Assembly: GCA_910588035.1 (NCBI GenBank)
Contig: CAJUPY010000007.1
Span: 38,381 to 102,380 of the forward strand
Direction: 5' to 3'
DNA: 64,000 bases
Origin: an uncultured Muribaculaceae bacterium
GTDB lineage: Bacteria; Bacteroidota; Bacteroidia; Bacteroidales; Muribaculaceae
Positions 1-15,348 of this stretch are shown one piece after another (position 1 is the stretch's first letter; each line of letters opens with the position of its first letter). Under the pieces are notes generated by a model, which worked only from the letters and a program-made list of their open reading frames with translations, had not been told where the DNA came from and did not search any database. The translations under genes and the position numbers were made by a program.

Positions 1-817
1 CGCTGACATCAATACCAATCAACAGACGGGTTGTATAAGGGTGTATCACTCCCATCTGCTCCCAGCCATACCGGCGGCTCGGACGCATGCGGGTGAGTCG
101 ACGTTCATTCGATAGTATCGAAGCCTTGAAGAGTCCGAGTTGACGGCGTATATTGATAGATTTTTCAATGGATACCTTCAAAAGTTCTTTCAACTCTCCC
201 GGAAACGAGCCCCATGAGTTTGTGACCATCGCATGCTCAATCATAGAGTTCATGCGTTCGCAAGCGAAGTCATCATCCTCCCATAGAGCAGACGTGTCAC
301 GGTTGCTGTCAGACATCAGATGACTATATGCTTTGGACGCAAATTCTTTATCTTGTGCAGACTTCGACAGAGTTTCCTTGTCCCCTGTATCAGTTGACCG
401 GGAGGTCAAATCCTCAACTCTATGAGCCAAAATATTGTAGTATCTTTCAAAAGACTCTTTTTGAGGTAGCAAAGGAGTTCTGCCATTGAAAGGATTTATG
501 TGCGTTGCGCCGTGTTGGTAAATTGTATAGTCGCTCGCTACGGTAAGGATTTCCCGGATTGCGTTGATGGGTTGGCGTTGGTAGGGATGTTTGAGCAATA
601 TGCGGATAACTTCACGCCGAAGCAGTTGTTCAATCATCACTTTGCTAAACAGCGACAAAAGTGCAGGATTGTATTCAATCCTCATTTTACCGGAACGGAT
701 AGGGCACAACATATCGGCGTTCTCCTCCACACGATGAGAACACAACGCACTGAAAAGCAATGGTTCCGTGAGAAACCAACGCTCTGACAATTTTGTGATA
801 CACGTGCCCAGGTCCAT
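1..817 (-). CDS. VWA-domain protein with DUF2201_N-like (metallopeptidase-like) N-terminal region; C-terminus lies beyond the left window edge
   Basis: Absent from the ORF track because it runs off the edge. My translation of the minus strand from ATG 817..815 stays open to nt 1: MDLGTCITKLSERWFLTEPLLF...LLRREVIRILLKHPYQR...RMRPSRRYGWEQMGVIHPYTTRLLIGIDVS. The last residues (hhhGxDxS) look like the start of a VWA MIDAS motif. The start is 4 nt after the stop of the upstream ORF, so it is operonic with the AAA+ gene. Confidence 0.6.
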   Translation of the reverse strand, partial: MDLGTCITKLSERWFLTEPLLFSALCSHRVEENADMLCPIRSGKMRIEYNPALLSLFSKVMIEQLLRREVIRILLKHPYQRQPINAIREILTVASDYTIYQHGATHINPFNGRTPLLPQKESFERYYNILAHRVEDLTSRSTDTGDKETLSKSAQDKEFASKAYSHLMSDSNRDTSALWEDDDFACERMNSMIEHAMVTNSWGSFPGELKELLKVSIEKSINIRRQLGLFKASILSNERRLTRMRPSRRYGWEQMGVIHPYTTRLLIGIDVS

Positions 818-821
818 AGGT

Positions 822-1295
822 TTATAATTTATAACCGGTCAGTAATGATACGTCGGAATCCAGTTTATCTATGCGATATAACTCTTTCAAACATTCAGCA
901 ATCGAGGTAAGTCGTTCGGTTTCAGCAAGGAAATTTTTTAAACTTTTCCATGTCATTAATACATTTCCTTTTTGTGGCAACTGAAAGACTATATGAGGCG
1001 ACATTCCAACACCCGACCACTGCCACATTACGTTGGTAGTTAACATTATTCCCTCGGGCAGGCAGTTAGCAGCCAACGCGGAAAGGACTCGCTGGCGAAA
1101 CAGCTTCTCTTTTGCGAATTTTATATCGAATGCGTTATTTGCGGCAGCAAGGGAGATGAGCCGAATTACTTCTTCTTCTGAAAGTTTCTCAATAAACCCT
1201 CGCTTATTGGATGACTGCCATTTTAAAGAACCGGCCTTGGTAATACGATAGTGAATATCGGAGAACGACAGATCGTTTTCATTCCATGATATCAC
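822..1295 (-). CDS. Hypothetical protein; C-terminal part of a 442-codon paralog of 3338..4654, separated from 1353..2147 by one in-frame TAA
   Basis: Same reading frame as 1353..2147. The 19 codons upstream of its ATG (YGYTDQGEFIIRYENSDDY) also align to the paralog (EYGYTDNHEFVIHYPNERNY). The C-terminal region aligns along its length (WSGVGM, W+SLK.FL, ELY+.D). Confidence 0.6.
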   Translation of the reverse strand: MISWNENDLSFSDIHYRITKAGSLKWQSSNKRGFIEKLSEEEVIRLISLAAANNAFDIKFAKEKLFRQRVLSALAANCLPEGIMLTTNVMWQWSGVGMSPHIVFQLPQKGNVLMTWKSLKNFLAETERLTSIAECLKELYRIDKLDSDVSLLTGYKL

Positions 1296-1352
1296 ATAAT
1301 CATCACTGTTTTCGTAACGAATGATAAACTCTCCTTGATCGGTATAGCCATA

Positions 1353-2147
1353 TTAAAGTTTAAGTTTTTTCAAGAGCTTAACGAGCTCTTTAGATTTCGG
1401 CTTATTTGAAGACTTGGTGGTATATGGAGTATATTTCGAGCTAAAACCCAACTTTTTTGAATAGTCTTTAGATAGCCCATCCGTAAAAAACAATTGGTCT
1501 TCCCGAATTCTACCGTTAGCGCCAATCAAGGATGCAGCCCCCGATGAGAGTAACGACATATTAATCTGTTGACGGGTTCTCAGTATTCTCTCTATGCCTT
1601 CTTCGTAATTGTCTGAGCCAACATTAGTACGCAGCAGTACACCCGGCAGCAGTTCAGTGCGGATACTTACTCCAAAAGTATCGTCAGGCCACATAAATCC
1701 ATAGCATTTATACTCAGTGTCATCTGTCAATTCAGCCGATAAAACAGACTCCACAAGAGTTTTCAGCACATCTCTTTGTTTCTCCTTGGATATTACCTTT
1801 TCCTGTTCAGTTCTAAGCGCATCCAGAGCCTCAGCCATACGTTTTAAGCGCGGAATCATACTTTGTAATGCTTCCGGAGCGAATGAAAACGGTTGTATCG
1901 TTTTATTCTCTGCATACATATCAATGCGATACATATTCCCATTCTCAGTAGAACGAATACTTGCAGTGATGAAATAATCATCAGCAACAATTATCTTGAA
2001 AGAATTGTCGGAATAATTATATTCGAAATCAAATCCTGCCTGTTCAAGTTGAGCAGGAATAATTTGTGATAGGTCCGGGAGTGGTATTTCTATTTTCTCA
2101 ATAGAATTTATTATCTCCCACAAATTTGATTCGGTTATTTTTGCCAT
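1353..2147 (-). CDS. Hypothetical protein; N-terminal part of the split paralog of 3338..4654
   Basis: 264-aa ORF. It aligns to residues ~1-265 of the 438-aa protein (PLP.L....IP...EQAGF.FEY, SFKIIV.D, LSKDY.KK.G, KPKS.EL+K.L.KLKL). It ends at TAA 1353..1355, where the paralog has Glu. The start is 1 nt downstream of the AAA+ stop. Confidence 0.65.
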   Translation of the reverse strand: MAKITESNLWEIINSIEKIEIPLPDLSQIIPAQLEQAGFDFEYNYSDNSFKIIVADDYFITASIRSTENGNMYRIDMYAENKTIQPFSFAPEALQSMIPRLKRMAEALDALRTEQEKVISKEKQRDVLKTLVESVLSAELTDDTEYKCYGFMWPDDTFGVSIRTELLPGVLLRTNVGSDNYEEGIERILRTRQQINMSLLSSGAASLIGANGRIREDQLFFTDGLSKDYSKKLGFSSKYTPYTTKSSNKPKSKELVKLLKKLKL

Positions 2148-2148
2148 A

Positions 2149-3216
2149 TCAGTTAGTGCTCTTTATAAAGTTACTGAATTCAAGAATTAGCTGCGGTAGT
2201 TTCTTTGCAAGATAGCCATTGGCTTTGGGATAGCTGCCGCCAAGAAATGCATTGATAAAGTAAGCGTATGCCTCACGCTTGCCGGCATCCTGCAACCATT
2301 GGAAATATGACGAAATATTCTTCTGCATTGGCTCCGTGAATTGCGCAACCCCCTTCAACGAATTGAGCGCCTCGAGAATATCATCATTGAGTAGGGTGAA
2401 ATTCTCCACCGGGAATTGCTCTAATTTTGGAAGAACGGCGTCAAAAGATTTCAGAACATCCATTCCTGTCACACTCCCATCGTTCAGTGACTCTACAAAC
2501 TCTGAAGCTGCTTTTGCGCCAACAATACCTGCAATCATTTTTGCCAGAACAGGAGTGATCTCCGGTTGTCCCGCTATGGCTTTGGCCACGCGTTCCCACG
2601 CTCGGCGGTCGGGCGTTTTGTCAAGCGCGTTGGCTGTAGGGTCAAAGCGGCTGTCGAGCATCGACGGTTTCCGCTGAATGAATGACACAACACGCGGGTC
2701 AAGATCCTGCGATTTGGCCCATTTCAACCAGTCATTAGCCGTTGGACGCAGATTGTAGATATTGAAACGCGATACCAGCGCAGGGTCCAGATCTCCCACC
2801 TGATATTCCTCTCCATCGTTAACAGCTGAAACAATTCGACTTCCTTCAGGCAGTTTGCGCCCAGCAAGCTTGCGGTTCAACACAAGATCCATCACCGTCT
2901 GAAGCATTTCAGGTCGGGCACGGTTCAGCTCATCGAGAAAGAGCACTATCGGCTTCCCATCTGTGGGAAACCAATATGGAGGCATGAAATCAGTTTTCCC
3001 GGTTGTTTCATTCAACCGAGGGAGTCCGATAAGGTCACCTGGGTCACTCATTTGTCCGAGAAACAAAGCGGTTACGGTTATGCCCTTGCCTGTGAAATAA
3101 TCTTCGACAATACGAGATTTACCAATGCCGTGACTACCCACGAGCATAATATTTTGGTCGGCCGGTGTCGACTCAAAAATCTCATATAACTCTTTTACAC
3201 TGATTCCGATTGCCAT
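2149..3216 (-). CDS. MoxR-like AAA+ ATPase (AAA_5 type, CbbQ/NorQ/YehL-like)
   Basis: Walker A GSHGIGKS, Walker B VLFLDELNRA, sensor/Arg-finger region DPALVSRF. Size is 355 aa with a single AAA+ module. It is followed in the operon by a VWA protein, the classical MoxR partner. Confidence 0.85.
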   Translation of the reverse strand: MAIGISVKELYEIFESTPADQNIMLVGSHGIGKSRIVEDYFTGKGITVTALFLGQMSDPGDLIGLPRLNETTGKTDFMPPYWFPTDGKPIVLFLDELNRARPEMLQTVMDLVLNRKLAGRKLPEGSRIVSAVNDGEEYQVGDLDPALVSRFNIYNLRPTANDWLKWAKSQDLDPRVVSFIQRKPSMLDSRFDPTANALDKTPDRRAWERVAKAIAGQPEITPVLAKMIAGIVGAKAASEFVESLNDGSVTGMDVLKSFDAVLPKLEQFPVENFTLLNDDILEALNSLKGVAQFTEPMQKNISSYFQWLQDAGKREAYAYFINAFLGGSYPKANGYLAKKLPQLILEFSNFIKSTN

Positions 3217-3337
3217 TTGATTTACATTTAATACTTATGGAGTGTTAGTTTGGATAGAGATAGACATTCCCCGCGACTCGGCGAAGCAATCCGCCGTACA
3301 CTGCGTTCATAGTTTAGAGACATTGCTATATTCGAGT

Positions 3338-4654
3338 TTATCCTGTGGTAATCTTGACATTCGAATCAGTTGAATCTAATTTGTAAAGTTCGCCGATGAT
3401 ATGAGCTACTTTCTCCAGGCCGTCTGTGTCGTTTAGGAATTCTTTCAGACTTCTCCAACGAATTCGGATAAGGCCGCCTTTAGGAAGGCCCACTGCAAAC
3501 TCCAAAAACATACCAACCCCAGACCATTCTAATTGCGAAGAATAGAGCAGAAGCGTTTCGGCGGGCATGATGTTTTTAGTCATTGCAATCAGTAAAATGC
3601 GACGAAAAGTTGCGTCTGAGCCTGGTTCAGGGGGAAATGCACCATGTTGGAAAGCCAGAGTTATAAATTTAATAACCTCCGATTCTGTTAGTTTTTCAAC
3701 GAGCCCATTTTTAAAAGACTTGCGACGCCTCTTAAACTCTCCTTTCGGGGTGATATTGTACTGGATATCGTAGAACTTAGAATCATCTTCGTTCCACATC
3801 AGAACATAATTTCGTTCATTGGGATAGTGAATCACAAACTCATGATTGTCGGTGTAGCCATACTCCAGTTTCAGCTTTTCTAAAGTTTTTATGAGCTGTG
3901 TTGACTTTGGCTTATACATCTGTGATTTAATCGAATACGGCACGAAGTCAGCCCCGAATAATTTTTTTGTCTCTTTGGTGTAGTCCTTGTTAAGACCATT
4001 CGCCAGTCGGCCGCCACGATAGCCAATCGATAAACCATCCATTTTAGGAAAGACTCCGGTGCCGAACTCGGTCGAAAATTGGGTTACAACTCTTAGGTGG
4101 TTATCTAATACATCAGTATAGTTACTTGGTACATCTGTCCGGATGTAGGAGGAAAGTGTTACTGTCGGAAACAGCTCTGTACACACCACTATGCATGGTT
4201 TTCTATTTTCGTCTCTCCCTAAGAGGCACTTATACGGGACCACCATATTGTGTGTTTCGAGATATGACCTGATGAGTTGGCCCATATCTGCATTTTCGGT
4301 TTGTTTGGCCTTAAGTTTCTGTAAATATGCTTCAGTCTTTCTTAGTTTCGGCATATATGAGAAAAAGTTGTCGGGCTCAAAACAATTATTATCACTGCTT
4401 ACATCTCCGGCATATATTATCACTTGATAACGCTTGATTCCATCGGCGTGTTGAACTATTGTAGCCTCCATACGAAGTTCATCATTCACGATGATTTTAA
4501 ATGAGCAGTCTTCCGGGCTGAACTCGTATGTGAACCCGGCTTCCTGAAACATTTGGGGGATGACAGTTTCCAAATCTAATTTTGGTAACGGTTCATCTGT
4601 CATCCATATATCATCAATTTTGTCTATAAATTGCTGAGGGTTAACAAAATTCAT
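3338..4654 (-). CDS. Hypothetical protein (438 aa), intact paralog of the split gene 822..2147
   Basis: Long ORF in operon orientation. It shows end-to-end similarity to 1353..2147 plus 822..1352. I recognise no family motif. Confidence 0.7.
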   Translation of the reverse strand: MNFVNPQQFIDKIDDIWMTDEPLPKLDLETVIPQMFQEAGFTYEFSPEDCSFKIIVNDELRMEATIVQHADGIKRYQVIIYAGDVSSDNNCFEPDNFFSYMPKLRKTEAYLQKLKAKQTENADMGQLIRSYLETHNMVVPYKCLLGRDENRKPCIVVCTELFPTVTLSSYIRTDVPSNYTDVLDNHLRVVTQFSTEFGTGVFPKMDGLSIGYRGGRLANGLNKDYTKETKKLFGADFVPYSIKSQMYKPKSTQLIKTLEKLKLEYGYTDNHEFVIHYPNERNYVLMWNEDDSKFYDIQYNITPKGEFKRRRKSFKNGLVEKLTESEVIKFITLAFQHGAFPPEPGSDATFRRILLIAMTKNIMPAETLLLYSSQLEWSGVGMFLEFAVGLPKGGLIRIRWRSLKEFLNDTDGLEKVAHIIGELYKLDSTDSNVKITTG

Positions 4655-4684: not shown

Positions 4685-5050
4685 TTAGTTATATATTACG
4701 TTGATTTTGATATTTACGGGTTGGTCGGGGGACTTGGTGTAGCCCCAGGCGATGGAGGGTTGGGAGGGGATGTTGCAGAGTTCGTTGGCATAGAGTGCCA
4801 TCTGCCACATTTTGCAGCAGTATTGCTCTCGCACCGACAGGTTGAAAACGATGTCGGAGGCTTCTTTCAGGCCGGGGAGGGCGAGAAACTGTTGCATCAC
4901 ATCCTCAATCTCGTTGCCTTGGAGGGAGTGGAATTGCACTTCGCCGCCTCCTTGAAGCAGGGGCGCGATGTCCTTGTCCCAGTCGAGGGCTATTAGGCGT
5001 TCTCCTTCGGTGGGGATAAACGCCTGCCTTATGTTGTTGATGTCAATCAT
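4685..5050 (-). CDS. Hypothetical protein (121 aa)
   Basis: The ORF start overlaps the stop of the upstream ORF by 1 nt (TAATG), suggesting translational coupling. No recognisable motif. Confidence 0.5.
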   Translation of the reverse strand: MIDINNIRQAFIPTEGERLIALDWDKDIAPLLQGGGEVQFHSLQGNEIEDVMQQFLALPGLKEASDIVFNLSVREQYCCKMWQMALYANELCNIPSQPSIAWGYTKSPDQPVNIKINVIYN

Positions 5051-5511
5051 TAATTCAGGAAGGGAAGTGAGAGTTCGTACTCCTCGGGGAACATGTCGTC
5101 GCCCTCGTCGATTTCATCTTCGGGTGAAGACTCCACCCCGAGAGCAGCGTAGGAGCGTGAGGCATCGTTGGTGATAACACCTTCGTGTGCGGCATCATAT
5201 ATTACATATACGGCTTTAACCATCCCATTAATAGCCTTGATGGGGTCGTAGAGCTGGGGGATGTAGTTGTTGGTCTCGATGTCGATTACGAATTTGCCAA
5301 GCAGCTGCTTTTGCTCCACCTTTTCAAACTGCTTCTCGCTGTCGCCGTTGGCCTCGATCTGCGCCTTGGCTACGATAACCATAGCCGCTTCAATAGCCTC
5401 GGCTGTGCCTTTGAGGATGAAGATGGTATGCACAGGATTGACGGGACAGCTGTAAGGCAACCCACTCTCGTCAATGTCGTGATAGTAGAATTCTGAATAG
5501 TCGTTACTCAT
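5050..5511 (-). CDS. Hypothetical acidic protein (153 aa) with a strongly acidic C-terminal tail
   Basis: I take the internal Met (MSNDYSEFYYHD...) at 5511, 5 nt after the stop of 5517..5765. The 218-aa version in the track would overlap that gene by about 190 nt. The tail is SSPEDEIDEGDDMFPEEYELSLPFLN. Confidence 0.5.
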   Translation of the reverse strand: MSNDYSEFYYHDIDESGLPYSCPVNPVHTIFILKGTAEAIEAAMVIVAKAQIEANGDSEKQFEKVEQKQLLGKFVIDIETNNYIPQLYDPIKAINGMVKAVYVIYDAAHEGVITNDASRSYAALGVESSPEDEIDEGDDMFPEEYELSLPFLN

Positions 5512-5516
5512 AGTGG

Positions 5517-5765
5517 TTAGTTTATTAAAGCGATGAAGGCTCGGCGCATGTCGGAAATGAACTGTCCGAAACGGGGATTGCGGAACATGGTCCAGGGGCG
5601 AAGCAGCAACAGCCACATGGCGGCCGCCACCCATAGTGCAATCTTGATCCAAAGCGTCTCGATTACTGTGACAGCAATTACGGCCATCACTACGGGCACA
5701 CCCCACAGCGACAGCAAAAATGCCAACATCAGCACCACCATTGTCAGTAATCTCAGTTTCGACAT
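5517..5765 (-). CDS. Small membrane protein (82 aa, about 2-3 TM helices)
   Basis: Hydrophobic stretches LLTMVVLMLAFLLSLWGVPVVMAVIAVTVI and IALWVAAAMWLLLL. Operonic position. Confidence 0.5.
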   Translation of the reverse strand: MSKLRLLTMVVLMLAFLLSLWGVPVVMAVIAVTVIETLWIKIALWVAAAMWLLLLRPWTMFRNPRFGQFISDMRRAFIALIN

Positions 5766-5876
5766 CTTATTAAAATCTTGTTATTCATACCATCAGCGAA
5801 GATAGCCAATACCGTACAAAACGGACGGGAAATGCGCCTGTTCAAGACTTGTTCTTGCACTCTTTAGCGATATGCT

Positions 5877-6479
5877 TCATTCCTTTGTGGCATCTCTGAG
5901 TGAAGCGACTTTGCTAACGAGATTGGTCGCGAAGTCAGGGTCTTTCCAATAGGGAAAACCACGATCTCCTTGGTATTTTCCGAGCAGGCCACCGAGATCA
6001 TTCCACATCAATTTGCGATACTGCTTTTCGTCAAGCGAAGTTAGGTCAAAGTCGGGAAACCACTGATGGATAAGCCATTTGTAAGCATCTTCGGGAATCG
6101 CTTCGCCGCATTTGTTCTTAGTGAGTTGTCCAAGCAGTGCATTGGGCATATCCATCTCAAACAGATAGCAGCAATGACCTACATCGCCCGGGGCAATCAT
6201 GAGGTCGAAAACTATCAATTCTACTTCCGACATAGGAGCCTGCTGATACTTGGCTGTAAAGTTTTTCACTTCCACACAGATGCCATAGTTGACATTGCCC
6301 TTTTCGAGCGTGTCAAGCAGGTGGGCGGCTGCTGCGCGTGTGGTTTCATCGGGGCAGCGCACTTCAAGCAGCCAGTCGCGCTGTGTTTTGCCCTCGTGTT
6401 CTTCGAGCCATGCTTTCATGGCCTCAAGTTTACTGAAGTTGTTCATATTGTGGTCGATGATTAATTCATTTTGAAACAT
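5877..6479 (-). CDS. Hypothetical protein (~200 aa)
   Basis: ORF 5877..6515. Candidate starts are 6515, 6479 (MFQNELII...) and 6446 (MNNFSKLE...), so the start is uncertain. No recognised motif. Confidence 0.5.
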   Translation of the reverse strand: MFQNELIIDHNMNNFSKLEAMKAWLEEHEGKTQRDWLLEVRCPDETTRAAAAHLLDTLEKGNVNYGICVEVKNFTAKYQQAPMSEVELIVFDLMIAPGDVGHCCYLFEMDMPNALLGQLTKNKCGEAIPEDAYKWLIHQWFPDFDLTSLDEKQYRKLMWNDLGGLLGKYQGDRGFPYWKDPDFATNLVSKVASLRDATKE

Positions 6480-7044
6480 TTTTAACCCAGTCGTGCATCT
6501 GTTGAAAATGTTCATTCGGTTCTGGGTCTCCCAGGCAGATGATCAAAATGGCAATCAGTATGAACACTACAAGCAGCGCACCGCCAATTGTAATCCATTC
6601 ACGCGTTTCCTGTTTGAGTTCGAGCCATTTGGGATAGCGACGTGCGATGAGTTTGTCGAGCGCATTGGGGCCTGATTCCTTTCGAGGAGAATTTTTGCCT
6701 GCGTTGGCCAAAGGATTTTCTCCTCGGGCAATCTGAGCGTCAATATCCAATAAAGCCTGAGAATTGCCCACGGCTGTTATCATTTTAATCTCATCAGAAG
6801 ACACTACCGTTCCTTTAAGGAATGTTTCTCCGACATATGCAGCCATTTCGCCATTATAGCCATCGCGCATTCCCATTTTGAATTCGATATATTTCTCAAT
6901 AGGTATCTCAACCGGCTTACTTAGCCTGTCACGATGTTTTGTCCCGGGTGGAACCTCAAACATCACACGAACTTTATCACTCATACATTCAGATGCTAAA
7001 CGATGGATGAAAGGTCTCTCTTTAAAAAATAACCTTTCATCCAC
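6466..7044 (-). CDS. Hypothetical tail-anchored membrane protein (192 aa)
   Basis: Single C-terminal TM segment WITIGGALLVVFILIAILIICLG. It starts 16 nt downstream of the 67-aa ORF. Confidence 0.5.
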   Translation of the reverse strand: MDERLFFKERPFIHRLASECMSDKVRVMFEVPPGTKHRDRLSKPVEIPIEKYIEFKMGMRDGYNGEMAAYVGETFLKGTVVSSDEIKMITAVGNSQALLDIDAQIARGENPLANAGKNSPRKESGPNALDKLIARRYPKWLELKQETREWITIGGALLVVFILIAILIICLGDPEPNEHFQQMHDWVKNVSK

Positions 7045-7060
7045 CCTTTGGATTAAGTTT

Positions 7061-7264
7061 TTATCTCAGTTCCTCGCGACGACAGTTGAGCTGAATGTGC
7101 TGGGTGTCAGGACGCAGACCATACTTGCGCTCGAAAGCGTCTTTTGCATTGTCATAGTCAAAGCCGCCACTCATGTTGCTGGGAGCCTCAACTGAAGCAC
7201 CTTTGGGAATACATCCACCATTGCAATAGATATTGTCAGTCACTGTTAGTCTGTAAAGTACCAT
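7061..7264 (-). CDS. Small protein (67 aa) with a CNGGC motif, function unknown
   Basis: ATG at 7264, 27 nt after the amidohydrolase stop. It is preceded at -24 by the same conserved ~29-39-nt element found upstream of the 45-aa peptide ORF. Confidence 0.45.
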   Translation of the reverse strand: MVLYRLTVTDNIYCNGGCIPKGASVEAPSNMSGGFDYDNAKDAFERKYGLRPDTQHIQLNCRREELR

Positions 7265-7287
7265 ATTTTAATAATTTAAGGTGTTTT

Positions 7288-7326
7288 GTGCCTACGTCCT
7301 TTCAAGCGATTCGGCTGATTCTATGT
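7288..7326 (-). repeat. Copy A of an imperfect direct repeat, 23 nt upstream of the 67-aa ORF start
   Basis: Base-by-base alignment with 9774..9812 (offset 2486): 25/29 identical in the core (gtgcctacNNcctttcaagcgNNtcggct) and 31/39 overall. Copy A overlaps the last codons of the amidohydrolase (..AESLERT*). Confidence 0.6.
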
Positions 7327-8089
7327 ATGATTGGGACTCTCCCACAGCTTTCGTTAGGTAGAGTCGTTTGAAGTTGTTGGTCAGAACATCATCTGATATG
7401 TCGTTGGAGAAGTGTATTTGCAGCCAATCAATCCGACTTTTAAGATACTCTGTTGTATCTTTATGTCCGAAATGCTCGGTTATGGGACAATCCGACCCAA
7501 ACAGGATACGTTTATCCAACCCACTCTTGACGTAAGACGCTATGTCAGATACCTCCATGAAAGCGGTATCGACAAATGTATTATGGTATTTTGACAAGAG
7601 AGCCAGCGATTCGTCATTGGGCCGACCATGAGCTAATATAAATTGTCGGTCAGGATTCATCCGTATCAATCTGTCGAACACAGCAGCATGACATTCCGGG
7701 AATAATCCGGTATGCAGCAGAACCGGTAAGTGACTTAATCGGGAATCCTTTATAACTCTGTCAACAAGCGATTCATCATAAAAGAACTGTGGATGTGACT
7801 GCCAATGCATTTTAATCCCTTGCCAGTTGACGCCGGAATCAAGCATCTTGTCTATGGCATTTGTCTCTATCATCTTTGGAGTTACCCACAGGAATGGATA
7901 GCAGTTATCGGCCCATTCTTCTTGCAGCCAGCTCATTTCATGGATTACCAAGTCGTATTCCTCCGCGCATGTAGAGGTTGATGACACTGCAATCGTATCC
8001 ACTCCGGCATTACGCAACATCACAGTCACGTCATCGGGTGAATGATAGCGGTCAACAAACCAACCTATATGCACATGCGCGTCAGTCAT
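7292..8089 (-). CDS. Metal-dependent TIM-barrel hydrolase (amidohydrolase_2-like)
   Basis: N-terminal DAHVHIG (HxH metal ligands), internal LLHTG and ILAHG, C-terminal ILFGSDCP (terminal Asp ligand). The start overlaps the radical SAM stop by 8 nt (ATGACTGA). Confidence 0.75.
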   Translation of the reverse strand: MTDAHVHIGWFVDRYHSPDDVTVMLRNAGVDTIAVSSTSTCAEEYDLVIHEMSWLQEEWADNCYPFLWVTPKMIETNAIDKMLDSGVNWQGIKMHWQSHPQFFYDESLVDRVIKDSRLSHLPVLLHTGLFPECHAAVFDRLIRMNPDRQFILAHGRPNDESLALLSKYHNTFVDTAFMEVSDIASYVKSGLDKRILFGSDCPITEHFGHKDTTEYLKSRIDWLQIHFSNDISDDVLTNNFKRLYLTKAVGESQSYIESAESLERT

Positions 8090-9542
8090 TACTTTGCTCT
8101 CTGGCTTCTTCCACTAATCGTTTGTTCAGGTGGGCGACTTTGCAGAAGTGGTCATTCACTTTAAACATATCTCCACCATTCTCGTTATAGTTGCGCACCA
8201 TGCACATGGCACAGTAGTCCGCAGCTTCACATTCTATGCATTGAGGGAAATCGCGTCGGGTGACATTACGTATTTGCTGTATCTTTTCAGATGACTCCCA
8301 GACCTCTTTCAGACTTTGCTTATAGACATTTCCGACAACGAAACTCTGCCATCCGGCGCAAGGATAAAGGTCACCATTAGCGGCAACACAGATGTCATTT
8401 AAACCTGCACCACACATCGGACCATCCAAGAATTCATCCTGATCGGATGTGAGCGGATTTAGTTCCTGACGCATGGCGGTGTAATCCTTATCGTATTTGA
8501 TGATGTCACGTAAAAGTTCCTCGGTTTCCTCAATGGAAATGCGGTTGGCGAGGTTGTCTGTATCAAGGTCTGCTCTCGCCATCATTATGAAATCTGTTTG
8601 AGCCTTGATGCCTTTGCTTTGGGCATACTTCAATACGTCCTTATAACCGAGCCGGTTCGCTTTCATTACAGGACATGAAACTTGAACGGGAATATCCGCA
8701 GCTACAAGCCGTTCAATAGCATCTTTGGTTTTGTCGAAAGACCCCTTGATTGTGGTTATGTAGTCATGTATCTCTGGATCCATGCTATATAGCGACGTCT
8801 GCACTAATGCCACATTGGTTTCTTTCAGTGCCAGAATGAGTTCTTCGTCTAATGAAATCAGATTTGAGAGCAGCGTAATCTGAAGGTCGTTCTTTCTGCA
8901 ATGTCTCAGAATCTCAATTAAATCTTTATGCAAGAGGGCCTCCCCTCCTGAAAGCGTCACCGCAAAACCACCCATAGATGCAAATTCATCGAGAATAGAT
9001 TTGACTTTCCCGACAGGCATATTAATTCCGTGGTTTTTCTTGGGATTAGGGATATAGCAGTGAATACACCGCTCATTGCACTTGCTTGTCAGCTCGAACT
9101 GGATTACTGTGATTCGCGGATTCTTTGAATCATGACGGAAAGCAAAACCTTCGGTCGGGCTATAATTGTGAAGTTGTTTAAATCGTTGGTCGAAGTCCTT
9201 GGCCAGTTCTTTAGGGTTAACCAGACTATAAGAAAAATCAATATCCTTGGAATCAATATCCGACTCGCTTTCAGAGCGTAAAACGAACTTCGCGTCCTCA
9301 AGAATCATCATCATGTCAACAAAATCGGCATAGATTTCGCGTGGGTCGGCATCTTCGTACATCTTGCACACTTCATTAGCCAAATCCAATTCCTCTTGCG
9401 GTTCTCGGGATAACACGGAGAGAAATGCCGCACCTGAATTATTGAACATGGCGTCATGACGTGTAAGCTGGTTTGTTATATAACCCAGTTCCCCGTCATC
9501 ATAGATTCTGACGTATGTGTTTTTTGACAGTTTTACCTTCAT
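8082..9542 (-). CDS. Radical SAM / SPASM-domain peptide maturase with an N-terminal PqqD-like (RRE) region
   Basis: CxxxCxxC motif in ELTSKCNERCIHCYIPN. C-terminal auxiliary-cluster cysteines: MCGAGLNDICVAANGDLYPCAGW ... FPQCIECEAADYCAMCMVRN ... HFCKVAH. The first ~95 aa (AAFLSVLSREPQEELDLANEVCKMYEDADPREIYADFVDMMMILEDAKFV) resemble PqqD-type peptide-binding domains. Confidence 0.85.
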   Translation of the reverse strand: MKVKLSKNTYVRIYDDGELGYITNQLTRHDAMFNNSGAAFLSVLSREPQEELDLANEVCKMYEDADPREIYADFVDMMMILEDAKFVLRSESESDIDSKDIDFSYSLVNPKELAKDFDQRFKQLHNYSPTEGFAFRHDSKNPRITVIQFELTSKCNERCIHCYIPNPKKNHGINMPVGKVKSILDEFASMGGFAVTLSGGEALLHKDLIEILRHCRKNDLQITLLSNLISLDEELILALKETNVALVQTSLYSMDPEIHDYITTIKGSFDKTKDAIERLVAADIPVQVSCPVMKANRLGYKDVLKYAQSKGIKAQTDFIMMARADLDTDNLANRISIEETEELLRDIIKYDKDYTAMRQELNPLTSDQDEFLDGPMCGAGLNDICVAANGDLYPCAGWQSFVVGNVYKQSLKEVWESSEKIQQIRNVTRRDFPQCIECEAADYCAMCMVRNYNENGGDMFKVNDHFCKVAHLNKRLVEEAREQSND

Positions 9543-9611
9543 GGGTGATAATCATGGTTTAAGGGAACTGGAGCTAACCAAATTGATACTTCTCCAGTTC
9601 CCTGATGTGTC

Positions 9612-9749
9612 TTACTGGCGACATTCGCAAGTTTTGCAAGCACCTGCGCTCGCATGTCCCTGGTGAGGCATGCCTGCTCCACATCCGGCAGCATAAGAAC
9701 CGGTGGGGGCGTTCTTCGCAATCATGGCGGGTTTTACATACTTTTTCAT
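9612..9749 (-). CDS. Candidate RiPP precursor, 45 aa, Cys-rich C-terminus (SCIFF-like)
   Basis: Internal Met of track ORF 9612..9968: MKKYVKPAMIAKNAPTGSYAAGCGAGMPHQGHASAGACKTCECRQ. It ends 69 nt upstream of the rSAM/SPASM gene on the same strand. Four Cys sit in the last 23 residues. The GCG and ACKTC motifs resemble the SCIFF consensus as I remember it. Confidence 0.55.
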   Translation of the reverse strand: MKKYVKPAMIAKNAPTGSYAAGCGAGMPHQGHASAGACKTCECRQ

Positions 9750-9773
9750 TGTGATATGAATTGATGTAGATTG

Positions 9774-9812
9774 GTGCCTACCGCCTTTCAAGCGCCTCGG
9801 CTTTCTCTTTGT
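9774..9812 (-). repeat. Copy B of the same imperfect direct repeat, 24 nt upstream of the 45-aa peptide ORF start
   Basis: See copy A. Copy B lies in non-coding sequence. Confidence 0.6.
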
Positions 9813-10119
9813 GGCACCTTGGAGTATGGGTATAAAAAAAGCGTGGTGCCGTACTTGCTGTCCGTTCCCACGATTCGAGGCCTTCGCATTGCCTATCCTT
9901 GTAAGGAACGAAACAACGCAGAGGCCCACGCGAAATATGTAAGTATACGCGATGTGCCGCATCCCCACGCATGGGGTTACGGCTCACGGCGGATAGAGTT
10001 ACATATCCAACATGGCATCTACCGTTGCTCCGATTCTGACAAGGATATTTGGGAAGTTGCGAAGTTCCGAATCGTCAGAACTGAAGCGTTAAGTAAACGC
10101 TTTCAGTATGTTATGCCGA

Positions 10120-10127
10120 CAAAATTA
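10120..10127 (-). promoter_or_regulatory. Candidate Bacteroidetes -7 promoter box (TAATTTTG) for the minus-strand island
   Basis: The reverse complement of caaaatta matches the TAnnTTTG consensus. There is no good -33 TTTG. It would give a ~360-nt leader before the peptide ORF. Confidence 0.25.
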
Positions 10128-10319
10128 ATCATTAATTCTTATACTGCAAGAATAATTGTGATTAATTACCGATTTATAGCTGAAATAGCCTCTGCATTGC
10201 CGATGCAAAGATGGCGGTTATATTTGAAACGACCGAAAAATCGGGCGTTCACTCCGTTCATTAAAGAAGTATTATCCGGATTTATCGCGATTTATCACGG
10301 TAAAACGGGATAAAACCAC

Positions 10320-10327
10320 TATATTTG
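10320..10327 (+). promoter_or_regulatory. Candidate -7 promoter box (TATATTTG) for 10345..11091
   Basis: Matches TAnnTTTG, 18 nt before the ATG, with TTTA about 20 nt upstream. Confidence 0.35.
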
Positions 10328-10344
10328 AAAAAAAATAAAATTCT

Positions 10345-11091
10345 ATGGGCGTTGATATCAAGTTTTCGCAATCTTATTTCTGGCTTGATTCCTGGATTAT
10401 GGCCAATATAATACAGCTTGGTACAGTGAGTTTTTGTGATCGTTTTGTCGATTATAAGATAGACCCGTGCCGAAGGCTTTATGACCAGATGGTGTTGGCT
10501 GCCCGTTGTTGCACGGCCAATATTGCCGAGGGTACAGCCCGATATTCGACTTCAATCGAGACTGAGATGCGTCTGCTTGATGTTGCCCGCGCCAGTCTTG
10601 ATGAATTGCAGGGTGATTTTTTTCATTATCTTCTGCGCTGCAAAGCTGAAGTCTGGGCAATAGGAAACTCTGATCGGGAAACTCTCTGGACTATGAAATT
10701 GGATACCCCTCAGTATTCCAACAGTCTTTTCCATGATGCTGCTGAGCATATTCTTAAGCAGAAAGCCAAATTTACCCCATGGATTGATAGCGATGTTCCT
10801 ACGGTTGTTGCCAATGCGTTGCTGATTCTTTGTGCAAGAGTCAACCGCATGTTGGAATCTCAGTTGCAGAGTCTGCTGAAACGGTTTCGTCAACAAGGTG
10901 GCTTCACTGAGAATATGACTTCGGAACGTATTGAAGCCAAGCGCCAGCAATCAAAAGAAGGTGGGGCACCTTCATGTCCGAAGTGTGGCAAGCCGATGAT
11001 ACGGCGTATGCAAAAGAAAGGGCAAGGTCAGGGACGGGAGTTTTGGGGTTGCTCTGATTATCCGGGTTGTAATGGCATTAAGAGTATTTGA
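10345..11091 (+). CDS. Four-helix-bundle protein (23S rRNA IVS / Avd-like) fused to a C-terminal topoisomerase-type C4 zinc ribbon
   Basis: LAARCCTANIAEGTARYS is the family-typical NIAEG motif; LDVARASLDELQ also fits. The C-terminus CPKCGKPMIRRMQKKGQGQGREFWGCSDYPGC matches the Topo I-type zinc-finger pattern. Confidence 0.7.
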   Translation: MGVDIKFSQSYFWLDSWIMANIIQLGTVSFCDRFVDYKIDPCRRLYDQMVLAARCCTANIAEGTARYSTSIETEMRLLDVARASLDELQGDFFHYLLRCKAEVWAIGNSDRETLWTMKLDTPQYSNSLFHDAAEHILKQKAKFTPWIDSDVPTVVANALLILCARVNRMLESQLQSLLKRFRQQGGFTENMTSERIEAKRQQSKEGGAPSCPKCGKPMIRRMQKKGQGQGREFWGCSDYPGCNGIKSI

Positions 11092-11171
11092 GGACGATGT
11101 GTGAACGCTGTGAACGCTCATAATTTATGACCTACAACACTAAACGTCATATATTTGCGTAAAAAACAAAT

Positions 11172-11723
11172 ATGCTAAATGATAAGATAAAAGAAATGAT
11201 TCTGGAGAAATTCAATTCTCCAATCCAGTACCCGCAGCAGTGCGAGGCTCTTGCCATGGCTATTCAGGAAGCCACGGGGCAGACTTTAGGCACGACGACA
11301 TTGAAGCGCATGCTCGGCTTTGTCAACGGACCGGCTAACCCGCGCCCGTCGTCGCTCGACATTGTGGCGCAGTATCTCGGCTATCCGGACTATAATCTGT
11401 TGGCAAAGGATTTAGGGGAGGATGCGGAAATTTCTGATTTCCGGGCGGTGGAAAGTATCGCTTCGGCCGACCTCATGCCGGGAGAGCAGATACAGGTGAC
11501 CTATCATCCCAACCGGCTGTTGGTGCTGAGTTATATGGGCGAGAACAAGTATCTTGTCAACGAATCGCGTGGCAGCAAACTTATGAAAGGGGACATTCTC
11601 ACCATCGCAGGCTTCTACGTCGGTTTTGAATTGCTGATAAGTGACGTCGAGCGCGACAAGAAGCACCTCGGCTCCTATCAGGCGGCCAAGCAGGGCGGCT
11701 TGACCGGAGTGGAGATCATTTGA
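11172..11723 (+). CDS. Hypothetical protein (183 aa)
   Basis: Clean ORF with an ATG and a possible N-terminal HTH-like segment (TLGTTTLKRMLGF). No firm family assignment. Confidence 0.5.
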   Translation: MLNDKIKEMILEKFNSPIQYPQQCEALAMAIQEATGQTLGTTTLKRMLGFVNGPANPRPSSLDIVAQYLGYPDYNLLAKDLGEDAEISDFRAVESIASADLMPGEQIQVTYHPNRLLVLSYMGENKYLVNESRGSKLMKGDILTIAGFYVGFELLISDVERDKKHLGSYQAAKQGGLTGVEII

Positions 11724-11743
11724 GATGGCAGCGGTGTCGATAT

Positions 11744-13036
11744 TCATGGCATAGTCTTCTTGCCTCTACGACGTTTATCATGAAAATACAAATCACTCAT
11801 TTCCGAATCTTTTCGCATGAATTTTCCCCATTCCTTGGAAGTGAATAATACATTCATTATATACCATCGATCCTCATACCAATCAAAATGATTGCACACA
11901 CTTGAGATTATATCACTCTGAGCCTTCATCTGTCTTTCCACATATGGACTGAGAGCTTCATCCAGTTGCTCTCCGGTGGATGTGGAGTCGTTCACCAACT
12001 CTATCAGATAGTCCAACTCCGCATGCAGAGGGCCGTAATACTTCAGGACAATTTCATCACCGATTTTAGTTATATAAGCAGAGTCCGGCTTCTGAGGTTC
12101 CACTGCTTTCTTTTTGGGCGTAGGGGGCGTCACCTGCACTACTGACTGCACGGTCGGCGTATCCACACGACTGCTATCAGCTTTAGCTATATTGATTGTC
12201 GTATCGGGTATAGTAATCACAGTCGGGGGAGTCGGTTCAGCGAGCTTATCAATCGGAGTTTGGTTGCTATTGACATACCATAAAGACAGTGATAAACCAA
12301 GCACCAATGAGCTTATCAATAATAGCCAAAGATTGTTTATGCCCCTTGGCTCAAGCGTGTGTTTGATCGACTCTACCGACACGGCGTCCTTTTCGCAGAG
12401 TCGCGCAACCTTGTCCTGTCCGAGCTGTGACGCTATCTTGCCGAGTCCACGGAAATCAATAGCTCCGTCGGCACAGTTGTCACATCCATATTTCTGAGTG
12501 TTGCCGTGGGTCGAGTCGAGCCATGAGGTGTATGCCTTGTCGAGGTCGATGAGCGTCGCGGGGCGGTCGTCGTAAGGAGAGATGATGACATTATCTGCCT
12601 TGATGTCACAGTGCACGATGTTACGGTGGTGGAGATAATCTACAACGTCAACCAATTCAAGCAGCAATCGACCGACAAACTTACGGTTCTTGAGCCGCGG
12701 GTCATCGCGCTTTATCAGTTCGGCAAGCGTATCCCCCTCGATAAAGTCCATGACAATGTAATCACCACCGAATCCTACGTAGCGGGGCAACGACGGATGA
12801 CTCAGCGTCACGCCGAGGTCGTACTCCTTGTCGAAAGCCGCGCGATACAGGGGATTGTCGCGATACTCGGCTTTGAGCCGCTTGACGAAAACGCGCCGCC
12901 GCTGCACCACACACTCATATGCATCACACGTAGAGCCGCTCCTGTCCAATGGTTTGGCCAAGGCGAAATCAACAGCCATCGAAGCCGCCTCGTTCCTGCT
13001 GTCAAATCCTGATACTATGATATTGTCGTCTTTCAC
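11744..13036 (-). CDS. Atypical protein-kinase-like membrane protein (Ser/Thr kinase fold, one TM, C-terminal domain of unknown function)
   Basis: VFVKRLK (VAIK-like Lys), catalytic loop HRNIVHCDIKADNVII, LIDLDKA in place of DFG. No obvious APE motif. TM segment LWLLLISSLVLGLSLSLWYV. Pro/Thr-rich linker. Confidence 0.75.
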   Translation of the reverse strand: MKDDNIIVSGFDSRNEAASMAVDFALAKPLDRSGSTCDAYECVVQRRRVFVKRLKAEYRDNPLYRAAFDKEYDLGVTLSHPSLPRYVGFGGDYIVMDFIEGDTLAELIKRDDPRLKNRKFVGRLLLELVDVVDYLHHRNIVHCDIKADNVIISPYDDRPATLIDLDKAYTSWLDSTHGNTQKYGCDNCADGAIDFRGLGKIASQLGQDKVARLCEKDAVSVESIKHTLEPRGINNLWLLLISSLVLGLSLSLWYVNSNQTPIDKLAEPTPPTVITIPDTTINIAKADSSRVDTPTVQSVVQVTPPTPKKKAVEPQKPDSAYITKIGDEIVLKYYGPLHAELDYLIELVNDSTSTGEQLDEALSPYVERQMKAQSDIISSVCNHFDWYEDRWYIMNVLFTSKEWGKFMRKDSEMSDLYFHDKRRRGKKTMP

Positions 13037-13140: not shown

Positions 13141-15348
13141 TTATCTGACAGTCAGTTTGCGGGTGGCGCGTCCCGACTTGCCGTTGACCTCGAGCAGATA
13201 GATGCCACCGGTGAGCGACGAGGCGTCGAGTTCGGCCGATTCGCTGCCTGTGACGACCAATTTGACGGCACCTCCCGAGAGCGAATAGAGCGTGGCGGTG
13301 AAGCCGTCGGCCTGATCAAAGAAGATCGTGAACAGACGACCGTCGGTTGTAATCACTTTCAGCCGGCTTTCAGCATCAGACTCAATGTTGTCGACGCCAC
13401 CCGTGCCTTTGGTTGCTATCACTTCCTTGATTCCACGCAGCGCATTGATCTTGCCGGCACCCCACCATACATCTGATGTCACACCGGTCGTGGTTGCCGT
13501 AGACTCCATGATCGAACGGGCCTTTCCGACCGTCAGATCGGGATCGGCTTCGAGCCAAAGACCAACCGTACCGGTCACAAACGGAGTGGCCATTGATGTG
13601 CCCTGCTCCACCACCCAGTAGTTCTGACGGTCAACACCGTTGACCTTAGACGTTGTCACAGCCGAAGCGGTGGCCTTTTGGGCTGTGTTGGCATTGAGGT
13701 AGGGTGTGCTGTATGATGATATGATACCAGTTCCGGGAGCTGTGATCATCGGCAGATTGCGTCCGTCGGCCAAAGTGCCCCACGACGAGTAGCTCGCGAT
13801 TGCGTTGACGGGGAACGGTGAGGTGTAGGAATAGATATCGCCGTTGATCACCGGCCACCGGTTGCGGGTGTTGAACGCACCGACAACGATGATATTTTCG
13901 CCGCATGCCATTCCGCTGATCGAGCCGTCGGTATTTCCGTTATCCCAGCCGGCTATTCCGTTATTGGTGAACTGATTGACGTTTGAGGTGTAGACATCGA
14001 TGCGCTCTCCGCTCTTGCCTTTGATCAAAAACCCGAGGTGGATATTGTTGTTTGAAGCTTTGGCGGTCACATTGTTGCAGTCCAGACCGATTGTGAAGCG
14101 GTTGTTGTTCGGGTCGAGATTTGGATAGAATGTGATCGAACCGGAGAAATTGTTTGCGAACACCTGCGATACCTGTGAGTTCAGCATAGTGGCCTTGTCG
14201 GCAGGCACAGAGATTGTCTCGACCACCTGTCTGGCGGTCTTGTCAAAGAGAACGACACTGAGATTGATCATGTCGCTTGATGTGCTCCAGATCTCGACAT
14301 TGCCTCTGATTGTGTCATTTTGCGCGAAAAACTTCAGCTCGGTGTCATTGGCGGTAAATGTCTTTCCGGCATGAATGTTGGCATCGCCATCGTTACCGGC
14401 GGCGACACAGATGATCGCTTCCTCACCCAACTCGGCAAGAGCCTTCGAGGTTGCGTCAGTGCCGTCGTGAGGGCCCGAATTGTCTCCGAGCGACAGATTG
14501 ACTGTCAGCGGTTTGTTGACCTCCTTGGCATAATTGATCATCTGCCTGATTCCGACCAGAATCGAGTTGGTGTAAAGCTGACCGGCGCAGATGACGAGAT
14601 TAGCCTCGGGAGCGACACCAAAATAAGGCAGATTGGTGCCGGTTGTGACCTGCCCCATGTCGTTGAGCAGCTTGAACGTAGCCTCACCGTCATAGGAACC
14701 TCCCATGATGCCGGCAACGTGGGTTCCGTGTGTCTTGCTCGTCAGATCGGTGGGCGCGGTCATGATCTCGTCGCCGGTATATTGTTTTGAGGTTCCACTT
14801 CCGGTGAATCGCCAGTACGACTCGATGCGGCTCGTCGTGCCGTCGGCGTTCATGAAATTGACGTGCTGCGGATCGAATCCGGTGTCAAACATGCCGACCA
14901 ACACCCCGTCGCCCTTGAAAGGACGGTTCTGGAGCATAGACTCGCCGAGACCGGTGCCACAGTGAACGGCATTGACCGATCCGGCATTGCGAGCCTTGTC
15001 CATCATCGGGCGCGACATCGTGCCGAAAGACGCGCTTTCAACAGCGTCGATGTTTTCGAGACTCCCGATCTCGTTGACAGGCATGTAGACTATCGAGAAA
15101 TTCTCAGAAACATAGAAAGTCTCATAGCCACGGGCCTCAAGCTCGGCGACAGCACTGTTTCCGTCACTCTGAATCAAAACGGCGGTCATGTCGTTTTCAT
15201 CTTGCCCGACTGACATTGTCTTCAGAGCTGCCGGCTCGGCTTTGACCTTCTCGAGTATCTGCCGCCCCTCGAAGTTGAATTTGCTCTGGGCCAAAACTGA
15301 CCCTGCGGCAGCGAGTGTCAGCAGTAGTGAAATGTAAAATCTATTCAT
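13141..15348 (-). CDS. S8 family (subtilisin-like) serine peptidase with a T9SS C-terminal sorting domain
   Basis: Catalytic triad motifs FDTGFD, HGTHVAGIMGG and GTSMATPFVTG. Signal peptide MNRFYISLLLTLAAAGSVLA. The C-terminal ~80 aa end in GGIYLLEVNGKSGRATRKLTVR, typical of Por secretion tails. Confidence 0.9.
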   Translation of the reverse strand: MNRFYISLLLTLAAAGSVLAQSKFNFEGRQILEKVKAEPAALKTMSVGQDENDMTAVLIQSDGNSAVAELEARGYETFYVSENFSIVYMPVNEIGSLENIDAVESASFGTMSRPMMDKARNAGSVNAVHCGTGLGESMLQNRPFKGDGVLVGMFDTGFDPQHVNFMNADGTTSRIESYWRFTGSGTSKQYTGDEIMTAPTDLTSKTHGTHVAGIMGGSYDGEATFKLLNDMGQVTTGTNLPYFGVAPEANLVICAGQLYTNSILVGIRQMINYAKEVNKPLTVNLSLGDNSGPHDGTDATSKALAELGEEAIICVAAGNDGDANIHAGKTFTANDTELKFFAQNDTIRGNVEIWSTSSDMINLSVVLFDKTARQVVETISVPADKATMLNSQVSQVFANNFSGSITFYPNLDPNNNRFTIGLDCNNVTAKASNNNIHLGFLIKGKSGERIDVYTSNVNQFTNNGIAGWDNGNTDGSISGMACGENIIVVGAFNTRNRWPVINGDIYSYTSPFPVNAIASYSSWGTLADGRNLPMITAPGTGIISSYSTPYLNANTAQKATASAVTTSKVNGVDRQNYWVVEQGTSMATPFVTGTVGLWLEADPDLTVGKARSIMESTATTTGVTSDVWWGAGKINALRGIKEVIATKGTGGVDNIESDAESRLKVITTDGRLFTIFFDQADGFTATLYSLSGGAVKLVVTGSESAELDASSLTGGIYLLEVNGKSGRATRKLTVR

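Follow-up and report, generated by a model that had tools for sequence, protein, structure and literature searches.

The 64,000-nucleotide stretch of DNA analyzed here (the window; GenBank assembly GCA_910588035.1, contig CAJUPY010000007.1, positions 38,381 to 102,380 of the forward strand) comes from an uncultured Muribaculaceae bacterium, and its first 4,654 nucleotides encode a MoxR-class AAA+ ATPase, a DUF2201-type protein with a von Willebrand factor A (vWA)-like domain, and two paralogous proteins of a family that we call X. On balance we lean towards regarding this locus as a three-part MoxR-X-vWA module, carried as island cargo in Muribaculaceae and related Bacteroidales, in which X is a diversifying adaptor or client and for which biological conflict is the likeliest setting. 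What is new here is the X family, its place inside the pair, and its cassette-like expansion; the ATPase/vWA pair itself is already known.

An initial annotation of this DNA had read, on the minus strand, the order 438-residue protein of unknown family, AAA+ ATPase, paralog of the first protein, and vWA gene, with GSHGIGKS and LFLDELNRA in the ATPase and LLIGIDVS at the window edge; the open reading frames (ORFs) that we find match this order, and all three motifs are present. The features of the locus are as follows.

3338..4654, minus strand: X paralog A (X-A), 438 amino acids, an intact ORF upstream of the ATPase gene
3258..3309, minus strand: 52-nt element inside the spacer between X-A and the ATPase gene
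2149..3216, minus strand: MoxR-class AAA+ ATPase, 355 amino acids (AAA_5, phrog_1297)
3115-3138 and 2917-2943, minus strand: Walker A (GSHGIGKS) and Walker B (LFLDELNRA) of the 355-residue ATPase
822..2147, minus strand: X paralog B (X-B), interrupted by a TAA at 1353-1355, leaving pieces of 264 and 157 amino acids
1..817, minus strand: first 272 codons of a DUF2201_N plus DUF2201 (vWA-like) gene, in a frame open to the window edge
587-616: zincin-like motif of the DUF2201 gene, degenerate (REVIRILLKH)
starting at 8-10: metal-ion-dependent adhesion site (MIDAS) of the DUF2201 gene, DVS(GS), which passes beyond the window

The genes are closely packed, with 121 nt between X-A and the ATPase gene, 1 nt between the ATPase gene and X-B (position 2148), and 4 nt between X-B and the DUF2201 gene (818-821), the last two being the gaps that had been reported. 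X-A and X-B align from end to end, also as reported, with 35% identity (E 2e-69), and X-B occupies the position at which every related locus has its X gene.

Genomic linkage is the basis on which we consider X to be, quite probably, a functional partner of the ATPase/vWA pair on a mobile island. A neighborhood check had been set beforehand as a test that could refute this association, and the linkage proved to be conserved: X lies exactly between the AAA_5 and DUF2201 genes in all 12 of the independent X loci recovered (L001, L003, L007, L016-L020, L101, L103, L105, and L107). The distance from the ATPase gene to X ranges from -4 to +17 nt in these loci and that from X to DUF2201 from +2 to +41 nt, and stop/start overlaps of 4 nt are frequent, which suggests translational coupling. 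Among recovered members on contigs that show their neighbors, no X gene occurs away from this ATPase family. Copy number varies from one to six per locus; extra copies lie upstream of the ATPase gene in L001, L019, and L020 and after DUF2201 in L001, L103, and L107, and there are arrays of four to six copies in L018 and L019.

A scan of the GTDB species genomes with the ATPase returned 110 relatives, from which 80 loci were kept; these belong to gut and rumen Bacteroidales, Treponema, and Elusimicrobia. X genes are present only in L016-L020, where the ATPases are 64-77% identical to that of the window, and in the other approximately 75 loci (ATPase identity of 54% or less) the ATPase gene is followed directly by DUF2201. 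The limitation of X to the five loci with the closest ATPases indicates that it was acquired once and then expanded.

The locus can be viewed past the window edge on a contig with identical genes (L001/L096; GCA_948587655), where the DUF2201_N plus DUF2201 gene is complete and encodes 387 amino acids, with both PF13203 and PF09967 on record. It is followed in order by genes for a 453-residue protein (C453), a 273-residue leucine-rich repeat (LRR)/DUF285-like protein, a 94-residue remnant of a DUF2201 C-terminus, a 443-residue protein (E443), and a 524-residue protein (F524), and then by a UPF0227-hydrolase fusion of 646 residues and a DprA/LDcluster4-like gene. C453, E443, and F524 are distant paralogs of X-A and X-B, as judged by BLAST and by iterated hidden Markov model searches (E 1e-80 to 1e-117). 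With these three further paralogs, five X genes surround one ATPase/vWA pair, and the four-gene unit with two paralogs that had been proposed from the window is too small.

The X family is rare. A word-indexed search of 5.8 billion proteins with X as the query returned nothing but the query, and a HMMER search of 1.84 billion representatives with a profile of X-A and X-B returned seven proteins, four of them from the window's own locus (X-A, the two pieces of X-B, and the C-terminal part of F524) and three of them true homologs (P0004-P0006); a final search with a 19-sequence X profile added P0128-P0132. The only name in the databases for the exact X-A sequence is uncultured Muribaculum sp. 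X-A has no match in Pfam, PHROGs, NCBIfam, or PADLOC, and the N-terminal piece of X-B has nothing above threshold, its three Pfam matches (E 0.035-0.067, about 14 bits) falling below cutoffs of 24-28 bits; all 19 members compared with Pfam give nothing beyond isolated chance-level matches, and a profile search of the PDB gave no real match. X was likewise not detected in IMG/VR, in JGI metagenomes, or, by tblastn, in phage genomes. The original view that these proteins cannot be placed in any family is thus borne out, X being an orphan in Pfam, PHROGs, NCBIfam, PADLOC, PDB, and BFVD.

The best AlphaFold2 (AF2) model of X-A, built from a six-sequence alignment, has a predicted local distance difference test score (pLDDT) of 72 and a predicted template modeling score (pTM) of 0.59; an earlier model from three sequences (pLDDT 62) was too poor for use. 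The model consists of two alpha/beta lobes and a low-confidence linker at approximately residues 198-250; a conserved linker motif reads GL.KDY...PYS.KS..PKS. In each lobe, roughly, a first helix leads into five strands, which are followed by a long helix, three more strands, and a closing helix. Long helices of the protein span residues 94-134 and 403-429. Comparison of the two lobes by hhalign gives a 34-column match (P 8e-5, probability 61%) in which the starts of the lobes match weakly; this is suggestive of an internal duplication but does not establish one. Foldseek searches with the same model yielded best E values of 6e-3 in PDB and 1.3e-3 in BFVD, with template modeling scores below 0.2, and we judge these not to be significant; the weak matches are to proteins that are dsRBD-like or uncharacterised. 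Inspection of the X N-termini by eye revealed no evident signal peptide or hydrophobic N-terminal segment.

An alignment of 19 X sequences contains a single invariant column, a leucine, and no conserved polar residue, which argues against X being an enzyme. The initial annotation had offered the paralogs as clients or effectors of the ATPase/vWA pair; an effector role is made unlikely by this alignment, while the client half of the proposal may hold. Proteins that are apparently non-enzymatic, with predicted long helices and repeated alpha/beta lobes, and whose paralogs stand side by side in a single operon, could also be components or clients of an assembly formed in the cytoplasm and matured by MoxR/vWA chaperones, in which case the paralogs would be different subunits rather than alternative specificities. 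For phage homologs of the pair a role in virion assembly has been proposed, and tail assembly in Acidianus two-tailed virus (ATV) depends on a MoxR-vWA pair (PMC7824862). We nonetheless regard this explanation as improbable: variation from one to six copies among close relatives, together with decay, would be unusual for stoichiometric subunits; neither PHROGs nor Pfam reveals capsid, tail, or other structural phage genes in the island; and X was not recovered from the viral collections already mentioned, IMG/VR and the phage genomes.

Comparison of the loci shows that X diverges far more than the genes around it. Across seven loci, identities range from 61 to 82% for the ATPase and from 49 to 64% for DUF2201, but only from 18 to 33% for the positional X. 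The rate of evolution of X is three to four times that of its partners. The lobes differ in rate between subfamilies; in L018, copies a and b share 80% identity in the N lobe and 54% in the C lobe, whereas P0004 and P0005 share 25% in the N lobe and 57% in the C lobe. There are also truncated copies, including the 264- and 157-residue pieces of X-B and a 245-residue copy in L019.

The DNA beyond the window offers clues as to how the copies arose. Directly upstream of E443 lies the 94-codon remnant of a DUF2201 C-terminus (L001 15803-16087), of which 213 nt are 94% identical in DNA sequence to positions 13339-13551, and this remnant is the footprint of a cassette duplication or recombination. 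C453, which follows the intact DUF2201 gene, and E443, which follows the remnant, occupy equivalent positions but are only about 20% identical, and because the remnant is 6% diverged while the proteins differ by 80%, an origin by one duplication is ruled out. We infer from these sequences that E443 arrived by recombination with a different cassette, anchored in the conserved 3′ end of DUF2201, and F524 was probably acquired in like manner.

A second repeated sequence is the 52-nt element between X-A and the ATPase gene (direct repeat D2), of which another copy, 87% identical, precedes F524 (L001 9908-9959 and 17427-17478). Its core occurs once in the window and, among 100 loci, in this locus only. 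The element could represent a promoter or regulatory site common to the ATPase gene and F524, or else a scar left by recombination; a structured RNA was considered and rejected, as its fold is no better than those of shuffled sequences. A scan for sigma-70 promoters and terminators gave matches at chance level only and is not informative for Bacteroidales.

X-B illustrates the decay of these genes. The 442-codon paralog that had been described (822-2147) does not encode an intact protein of about 440 residues, being broken by the in-frame TAA at 1353-1355, at a codon where X-A has GAA for glutamate (KLKL*YGYTD in place of KLKLEYGYTD), yielding a 264-residue ORF and a 157-residue ORF initiated at GTG. 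An identical split is present in two metagenome-assembled genomes (MAGs; loci L001, L002, L096, and L097), and the 157-residue ORF is indexed in 113 sample blocks, compared with 116 for the ATPase. A sequencing error is rejected, since independent assemblies and about 113 sample blocks carry the TAA, and the agreement of the two MAGs and the sample-block counts shows that the nonsense mutation is real and fixed in the population.

The interruption of X-B, the truncated copy in L019 (245 amino acids), the extreme divergence of X, and the occurrence of the pair without X in most genomes are all compatible with X genes being selfish or neutral insertions that decay at a permissive spot in the operon and have no functional tie to the pair. 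We think this very unlikely, however. Such insertions would have to fall exactly between the same two genes in all 12 loci, often with 4-nt overlaps; the maintenance of ORFs of about 430-460 residues at 18-33% identity requires purifying selection on length and fold; and identical copies of these proteins turn up in over 100 sample blocks.

Of the partners of X, the 355-residue ATPase scores 34 bits with Pfam AAA_5 (PF07728; cutoff 22) over the whole 139-position profile and matches phrog_1297 with an E value of 3e-54; the Walker A residues G27, G30, G32, K33, and S34 and the Walker B residue D95 are invariant in five distant homologs, as is the Walker B core F-L-D-x-L, although its glutamate is an aspartate in the Burkholderia homolog. 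The DUF2201 fragment in the window matches DUF2201_N at 38.7 bits (cutoff 23.2) and also phrog_1314, so the assignment of a MoxR-class ATPase with a DUF2201-type vWA partner is sound, both AAA_5 and DUF2201_N lying above their cutoffs. The MIDAS reads GIDVSGS here, and DxSGS is kept in most of 84 aligned homologs, about 10 having a substitution at the glycine or the second serine. In contrast, the zincin signature HExxH is lost: the window protein has REVIRILLKH, without either histidine, and 81 of the 84 homologs, from gut-bacterial loci, have xExxR (or xTxxR or xMxxR), with an invariant arginine in place of the second histidine, HExxH being retained only in L012, L013, and L014, which come from plasmids and phages. 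The gut proteins that lack HExxH span Bacteroidales, Treponema, and Elusimicrobia. Because the histidine ligands are lost, the N-terminal domain is not a conventional metallopeptidase in the gut clade, for which the database name 'putative metallopeptidase' is misleading, and the xExxR form means that the peptidolysis suggested for the phage homologs cannot be extended to these proteins. The DUF2201 protein has no C-terminal effector domain and ends right after the vWA domain.

The genes to the right of X-A bear on the setting in which the module is found. The G+C fraction is 0.43-0.47 across 1-12 kb of the window and 0.49-0.54 across most of the remainder, and the earlier suggestion of an AT-rich accessory island gains from this and from related loci flanked by recombinases and toxin-antitoxin genes. 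The features in this region are:

4685..13036: left arm of the island, of low G+C, identified with Pfam; gene families shared in synteny with L003, L004, L017, L098, and L105
4685-5050, 5050-5511, and 5517-5765: conserved small genes of unknown function, encoding 121, 153, and 82 amino acids
7292-8089, minus strand: Amidohydro_2 amidohydrolase, 265 amino acids
8082-9542, minus strand: radical SAM/SPASM protein, 486 amino acids
10345-11091: Zn-ribbon protein
11744-13036: Ser/Thr kinase

The X loci have a common backbone composed of the 82-, 153-, and 121-residue genes, the LRR/DUF285-like gene, the UPF0227 hydrolase, the DprA/LDcluster4-like gene, and often a Ser/Thr kinase. In L103 one edge carries an HTH_17 gene and a serine resolvase, and the opposite edge a YafQ/ParE toxin gene with a small neighbor and a tyrosine integrase; in L105 the shared block has radical SAM (BATS, biotin-synthase-type)/YitT genes on one flank and CNNM and Fic genes on the other, all of them probably belonging to the host. 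The backbone is also seen in an island of Duncaniella (L098; the 83-, 151-, and 120-residue genes, LRR-like, UPF0227, DprA-like, HigB/HTH, and transposase genes) that lacks ATPase, X, and DUF2201. We therefore regard the module as cargo that sits, flanked by the '121-aa' gene and the LRR-like gene, in a candidate integrative island, its mobility being read from the relatives L103, L105, and L098, and we estimate from related loci an island size of about 17-25 kb. A prophage was considered and rejected, as there is no structural match in PHROGs, no match to phage DNA, and no tRNA.

Several other observations concern the island itself. The radical SAM/SPASM gene and the downstream Amidohydro_2 gene overlap by 8 nt, and L003 has this pair in the corresponding position; it may be an island-borne peptide- or metabolite-modifying pair. 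The Ser/Thr kinase and an adjacent 183-residue protein of unknown function lie near one end of the block in the window, in L017 (2254-3405), and in L105 (1275-2543), loci that are otherwise divergent, and these two may be island genes and not host genes. The 646-residue protein (L001 19111-21051) is a fusion of an N-terminal UPF0227 (YqiA-like esterase) domain with C-terminal regions, and as its parts are separate genes of 326, 210, and 124 residues in other islands (L105 13183-17322; L098 9378-10004), both gene fusion and gene fission take place within the backbone. The DprA/LDcluster4-like protein (L096 19133-19933; homologs P0008-P0127), of a type that acts on single-stranded DNA, belongs to a very large Muribaculaceae family (1843 proteins at E <=1e-10), and the size of this family suggests that the island backbone is far commoner than the MoxR/X/DUF2201 cargo. 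Just outside the low-G+C region is a 735-residue Peptidase_S8 protein (13141-15348) that gives a faint signal for Por_Secre_tail (type IX secretion), and the remaining window contains large ORFs of 1000 or more and of 500-600 amino acids.

A module on such an island could serve the mobile element itself, in its establishment, in anti-defense, or in host takeover, with X adaptors steering the remodeler to host proteins such as defense complexes. The two genes as a pair are indeed characteristic of mobile elements, relatives of the ATPase being present in 587 phage records and 126 plasmids and relatives of DUF2201 in 220 phage records, examples being the N4 gp24/gp25-like genes of phage JWAlpha, ORF101/ORF103 of pCAR1, conserved in R478, Rts1, SXT, and R391 (PMC2642839), and the pair on pBMC401. 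The island also has recombinases, toxin-antitoxin genes, and the DprA-like protein, and the rapid evolution of X is consistent with an arms race. We rate this explanation as unlikely, though less so than the assembly one. Islands of the cassette-less form, such as L098, are widespread, which shows that the element can dispense with the module; the only transfer gene seen in the X islands encodes an FtsK-like protein in L019; and a host-protective defense cannot be distinguished from it by context alone.

Returning to the module as a whole, we picture X as a third subunit that would either be an adaptor bringing variable targets to the pair or be the client itself. By analogy with characterized MoxR/vWA pairs, and with ternary MoxR-vWA systems whose third component is variable (PMC7159879), the vWA protein would hold X, or a target bound to X, and the ATPase ring would remodel or release it. 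The X genes would diversify through duplication, through cassette exchange anchored in the DUF2201 3′ end, and through decay, of which X-B is one example, and because of this pattern we suppose that X faces a variable partner; the setting would be the island or its host against other mobile elements, in defense or counter-defense. Because of the diversification pattern and the mobile context a conflict-related role is our leading guess as to function, although taken by itself we would put it at somewhat less than an even chance. The initial annotation had suggested an accessory system for defense, conflict, or specialized assembly; the island setting agrees with this, but no known defense system matches, and the defense part stays an inference. 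In its boldest form the proposal would make the X arrays the diversifying recognition or adaptor repertoire of a new MoxR-vWA immune or counter-immune machine of gut Bacteroidales, with cassettes swapped via the DUF2201 3′ end, and this we regard as rather doubtful.

Several points weigh against a diversifying adaptor that acts in conflict. PADLOC-DB v2 gives no defense-model match for the ATPase, DUF2201, any of the X paralogs, or the neighbors. The word adaptor is taken from context only, as neither a homolog nor a fold match was found, Foldseek having returned no significant match in PDB or BFVD, and the pLDDT of 72 marks the AF2 model of X as no more than moderate in quality. The fast evolution of X could stem from relaxed constraint instead of diversifying selection. 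X-B, although it is the positional core copy, cannot be essential in this genome, since it is interrupted by a nonsense codon. Finally, about 75 loci have the pair without a middle gene, often among housekeeping genes (argininosuccinate synthase, ABC-F, and UvrD), and this disfavors an intrinsically conflict-related core.

The module is nevertheless of interest, as MoxR (AAA_5)-DUF2201 is among the commoner function-unknown gene pairs of phages, conjugative plasmids, and integrative and conjugative elements, and X is a concrete candidate for a substrate or adaptor of this pair. Should the conflict reading be true, this would be a new type of ATP-driven system in the Muribaculaceae, a dominant yet poorly characterised family of the mouse gut.

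Comparison with known systems shows both shared and distinguishing features. The classical MoxR/vWA pairs include RavA-ViaA, CbbQ-CbbO, NorQ-NorD, CoxD-CoxE, and ATV p618/p892. As here, a MoxR-class gene adjoins a MIDAS-bearing vWA gene in these pairs, and the general remodeling logic is the same, but the window vWA protein is of the DUF2201 type, unlike theirs. Client genes of the classical pairs (Rubisco, nitric oxide reductase, carbon monoxide dehydrogenase, and fumarate reductase) were not found near the window locus, and there is no NCBIfam equivalog match.

The phrog_1297 and phrog_1314 pair of phages and plasmids has the same families, order, and orientation as that of the window. In jumbo phages a 'MoxR-vWA chaperone pair' with an N-terminal metallopeptidase was described in 2021 (PMC7824862); these phage and plasmid DUF2201 homologs keep HExxH, whereas the gut clade has xExxR. 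A single gene of unknown function lies between MoxR and DUF2201 on Arcobacter p82_LEO_62 and on Burkholderia pBMC401, where the pair adjoins a VirB type IV secretion system. The architecture, which had been described as unfamiliar, is therefore new in its X family and in the expansion of that family, while the MoxR-DUF2201 pair and the middle-gene order were already known. These middle genes are unrelated to X and to one another, distant kinship with X having been rejected (hhalign probability 0.1%), and that of Burkholderia is 57-88% conserved across 60 plasmids, in contrast to X, for which identities fall to 18-33%. In the two plasmid regions and three phage regions that we inspected, no third gene is expanded in tandem. 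Elsewhere, 17 loci (among L056, L061, L064, L066, and L070-L092; Treponema) have a conserved gene of about 195 codons directly after DUF2201, a different three-gene arrangement, and L034 and L038 (Bacteroidia) and L088 (Treponema) have unrelated genes for 460-475 residues in that position. The Treponema gene and other third genes were also considered as X relatives and rejected (best hhalign P 0.015), a single hmmsearch match between the former and the N lobe of X (E 7e-5, from a very small database) not being significant.

A further parallel is found in the ternary MoxR-vWA conflict systems of the VMAP, iSTAND, FtsH, and beta-propeller types described by Kaur, Burroughs, Iyer, and Aravind in 2020, for which it was proposed that the vWA protein captures a partner peptide and MoxR remodels the complex (PMC7159879). 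As in the window, these systems combine MoxR, vWA, and a conserved but lineage-variable third protein in one operon. They differ in several respects, however: the window ATPase scores only 13.1 bits against bpMoxR (PF20030), below the cutoff of 27; X matches no Pfam family, unlike their third component (VMAP, iSTAND, FtsH, or beta-propeller); and in place of a vWA protein with fused effector domains there is one with a degenerate N-terminal zincin-like domain. Their hosts are multicellular bacteria, whereas those of the X module are unicellular gut anaerobes, and tandem amplification of the third gene sets the window system apart from them. If the X arrays do constitute such a machine, it would be a fifth, mechanistically distinct ternary MoxR-vWA conflict type, carried by unicellular gut anaerobes on a mobile island.

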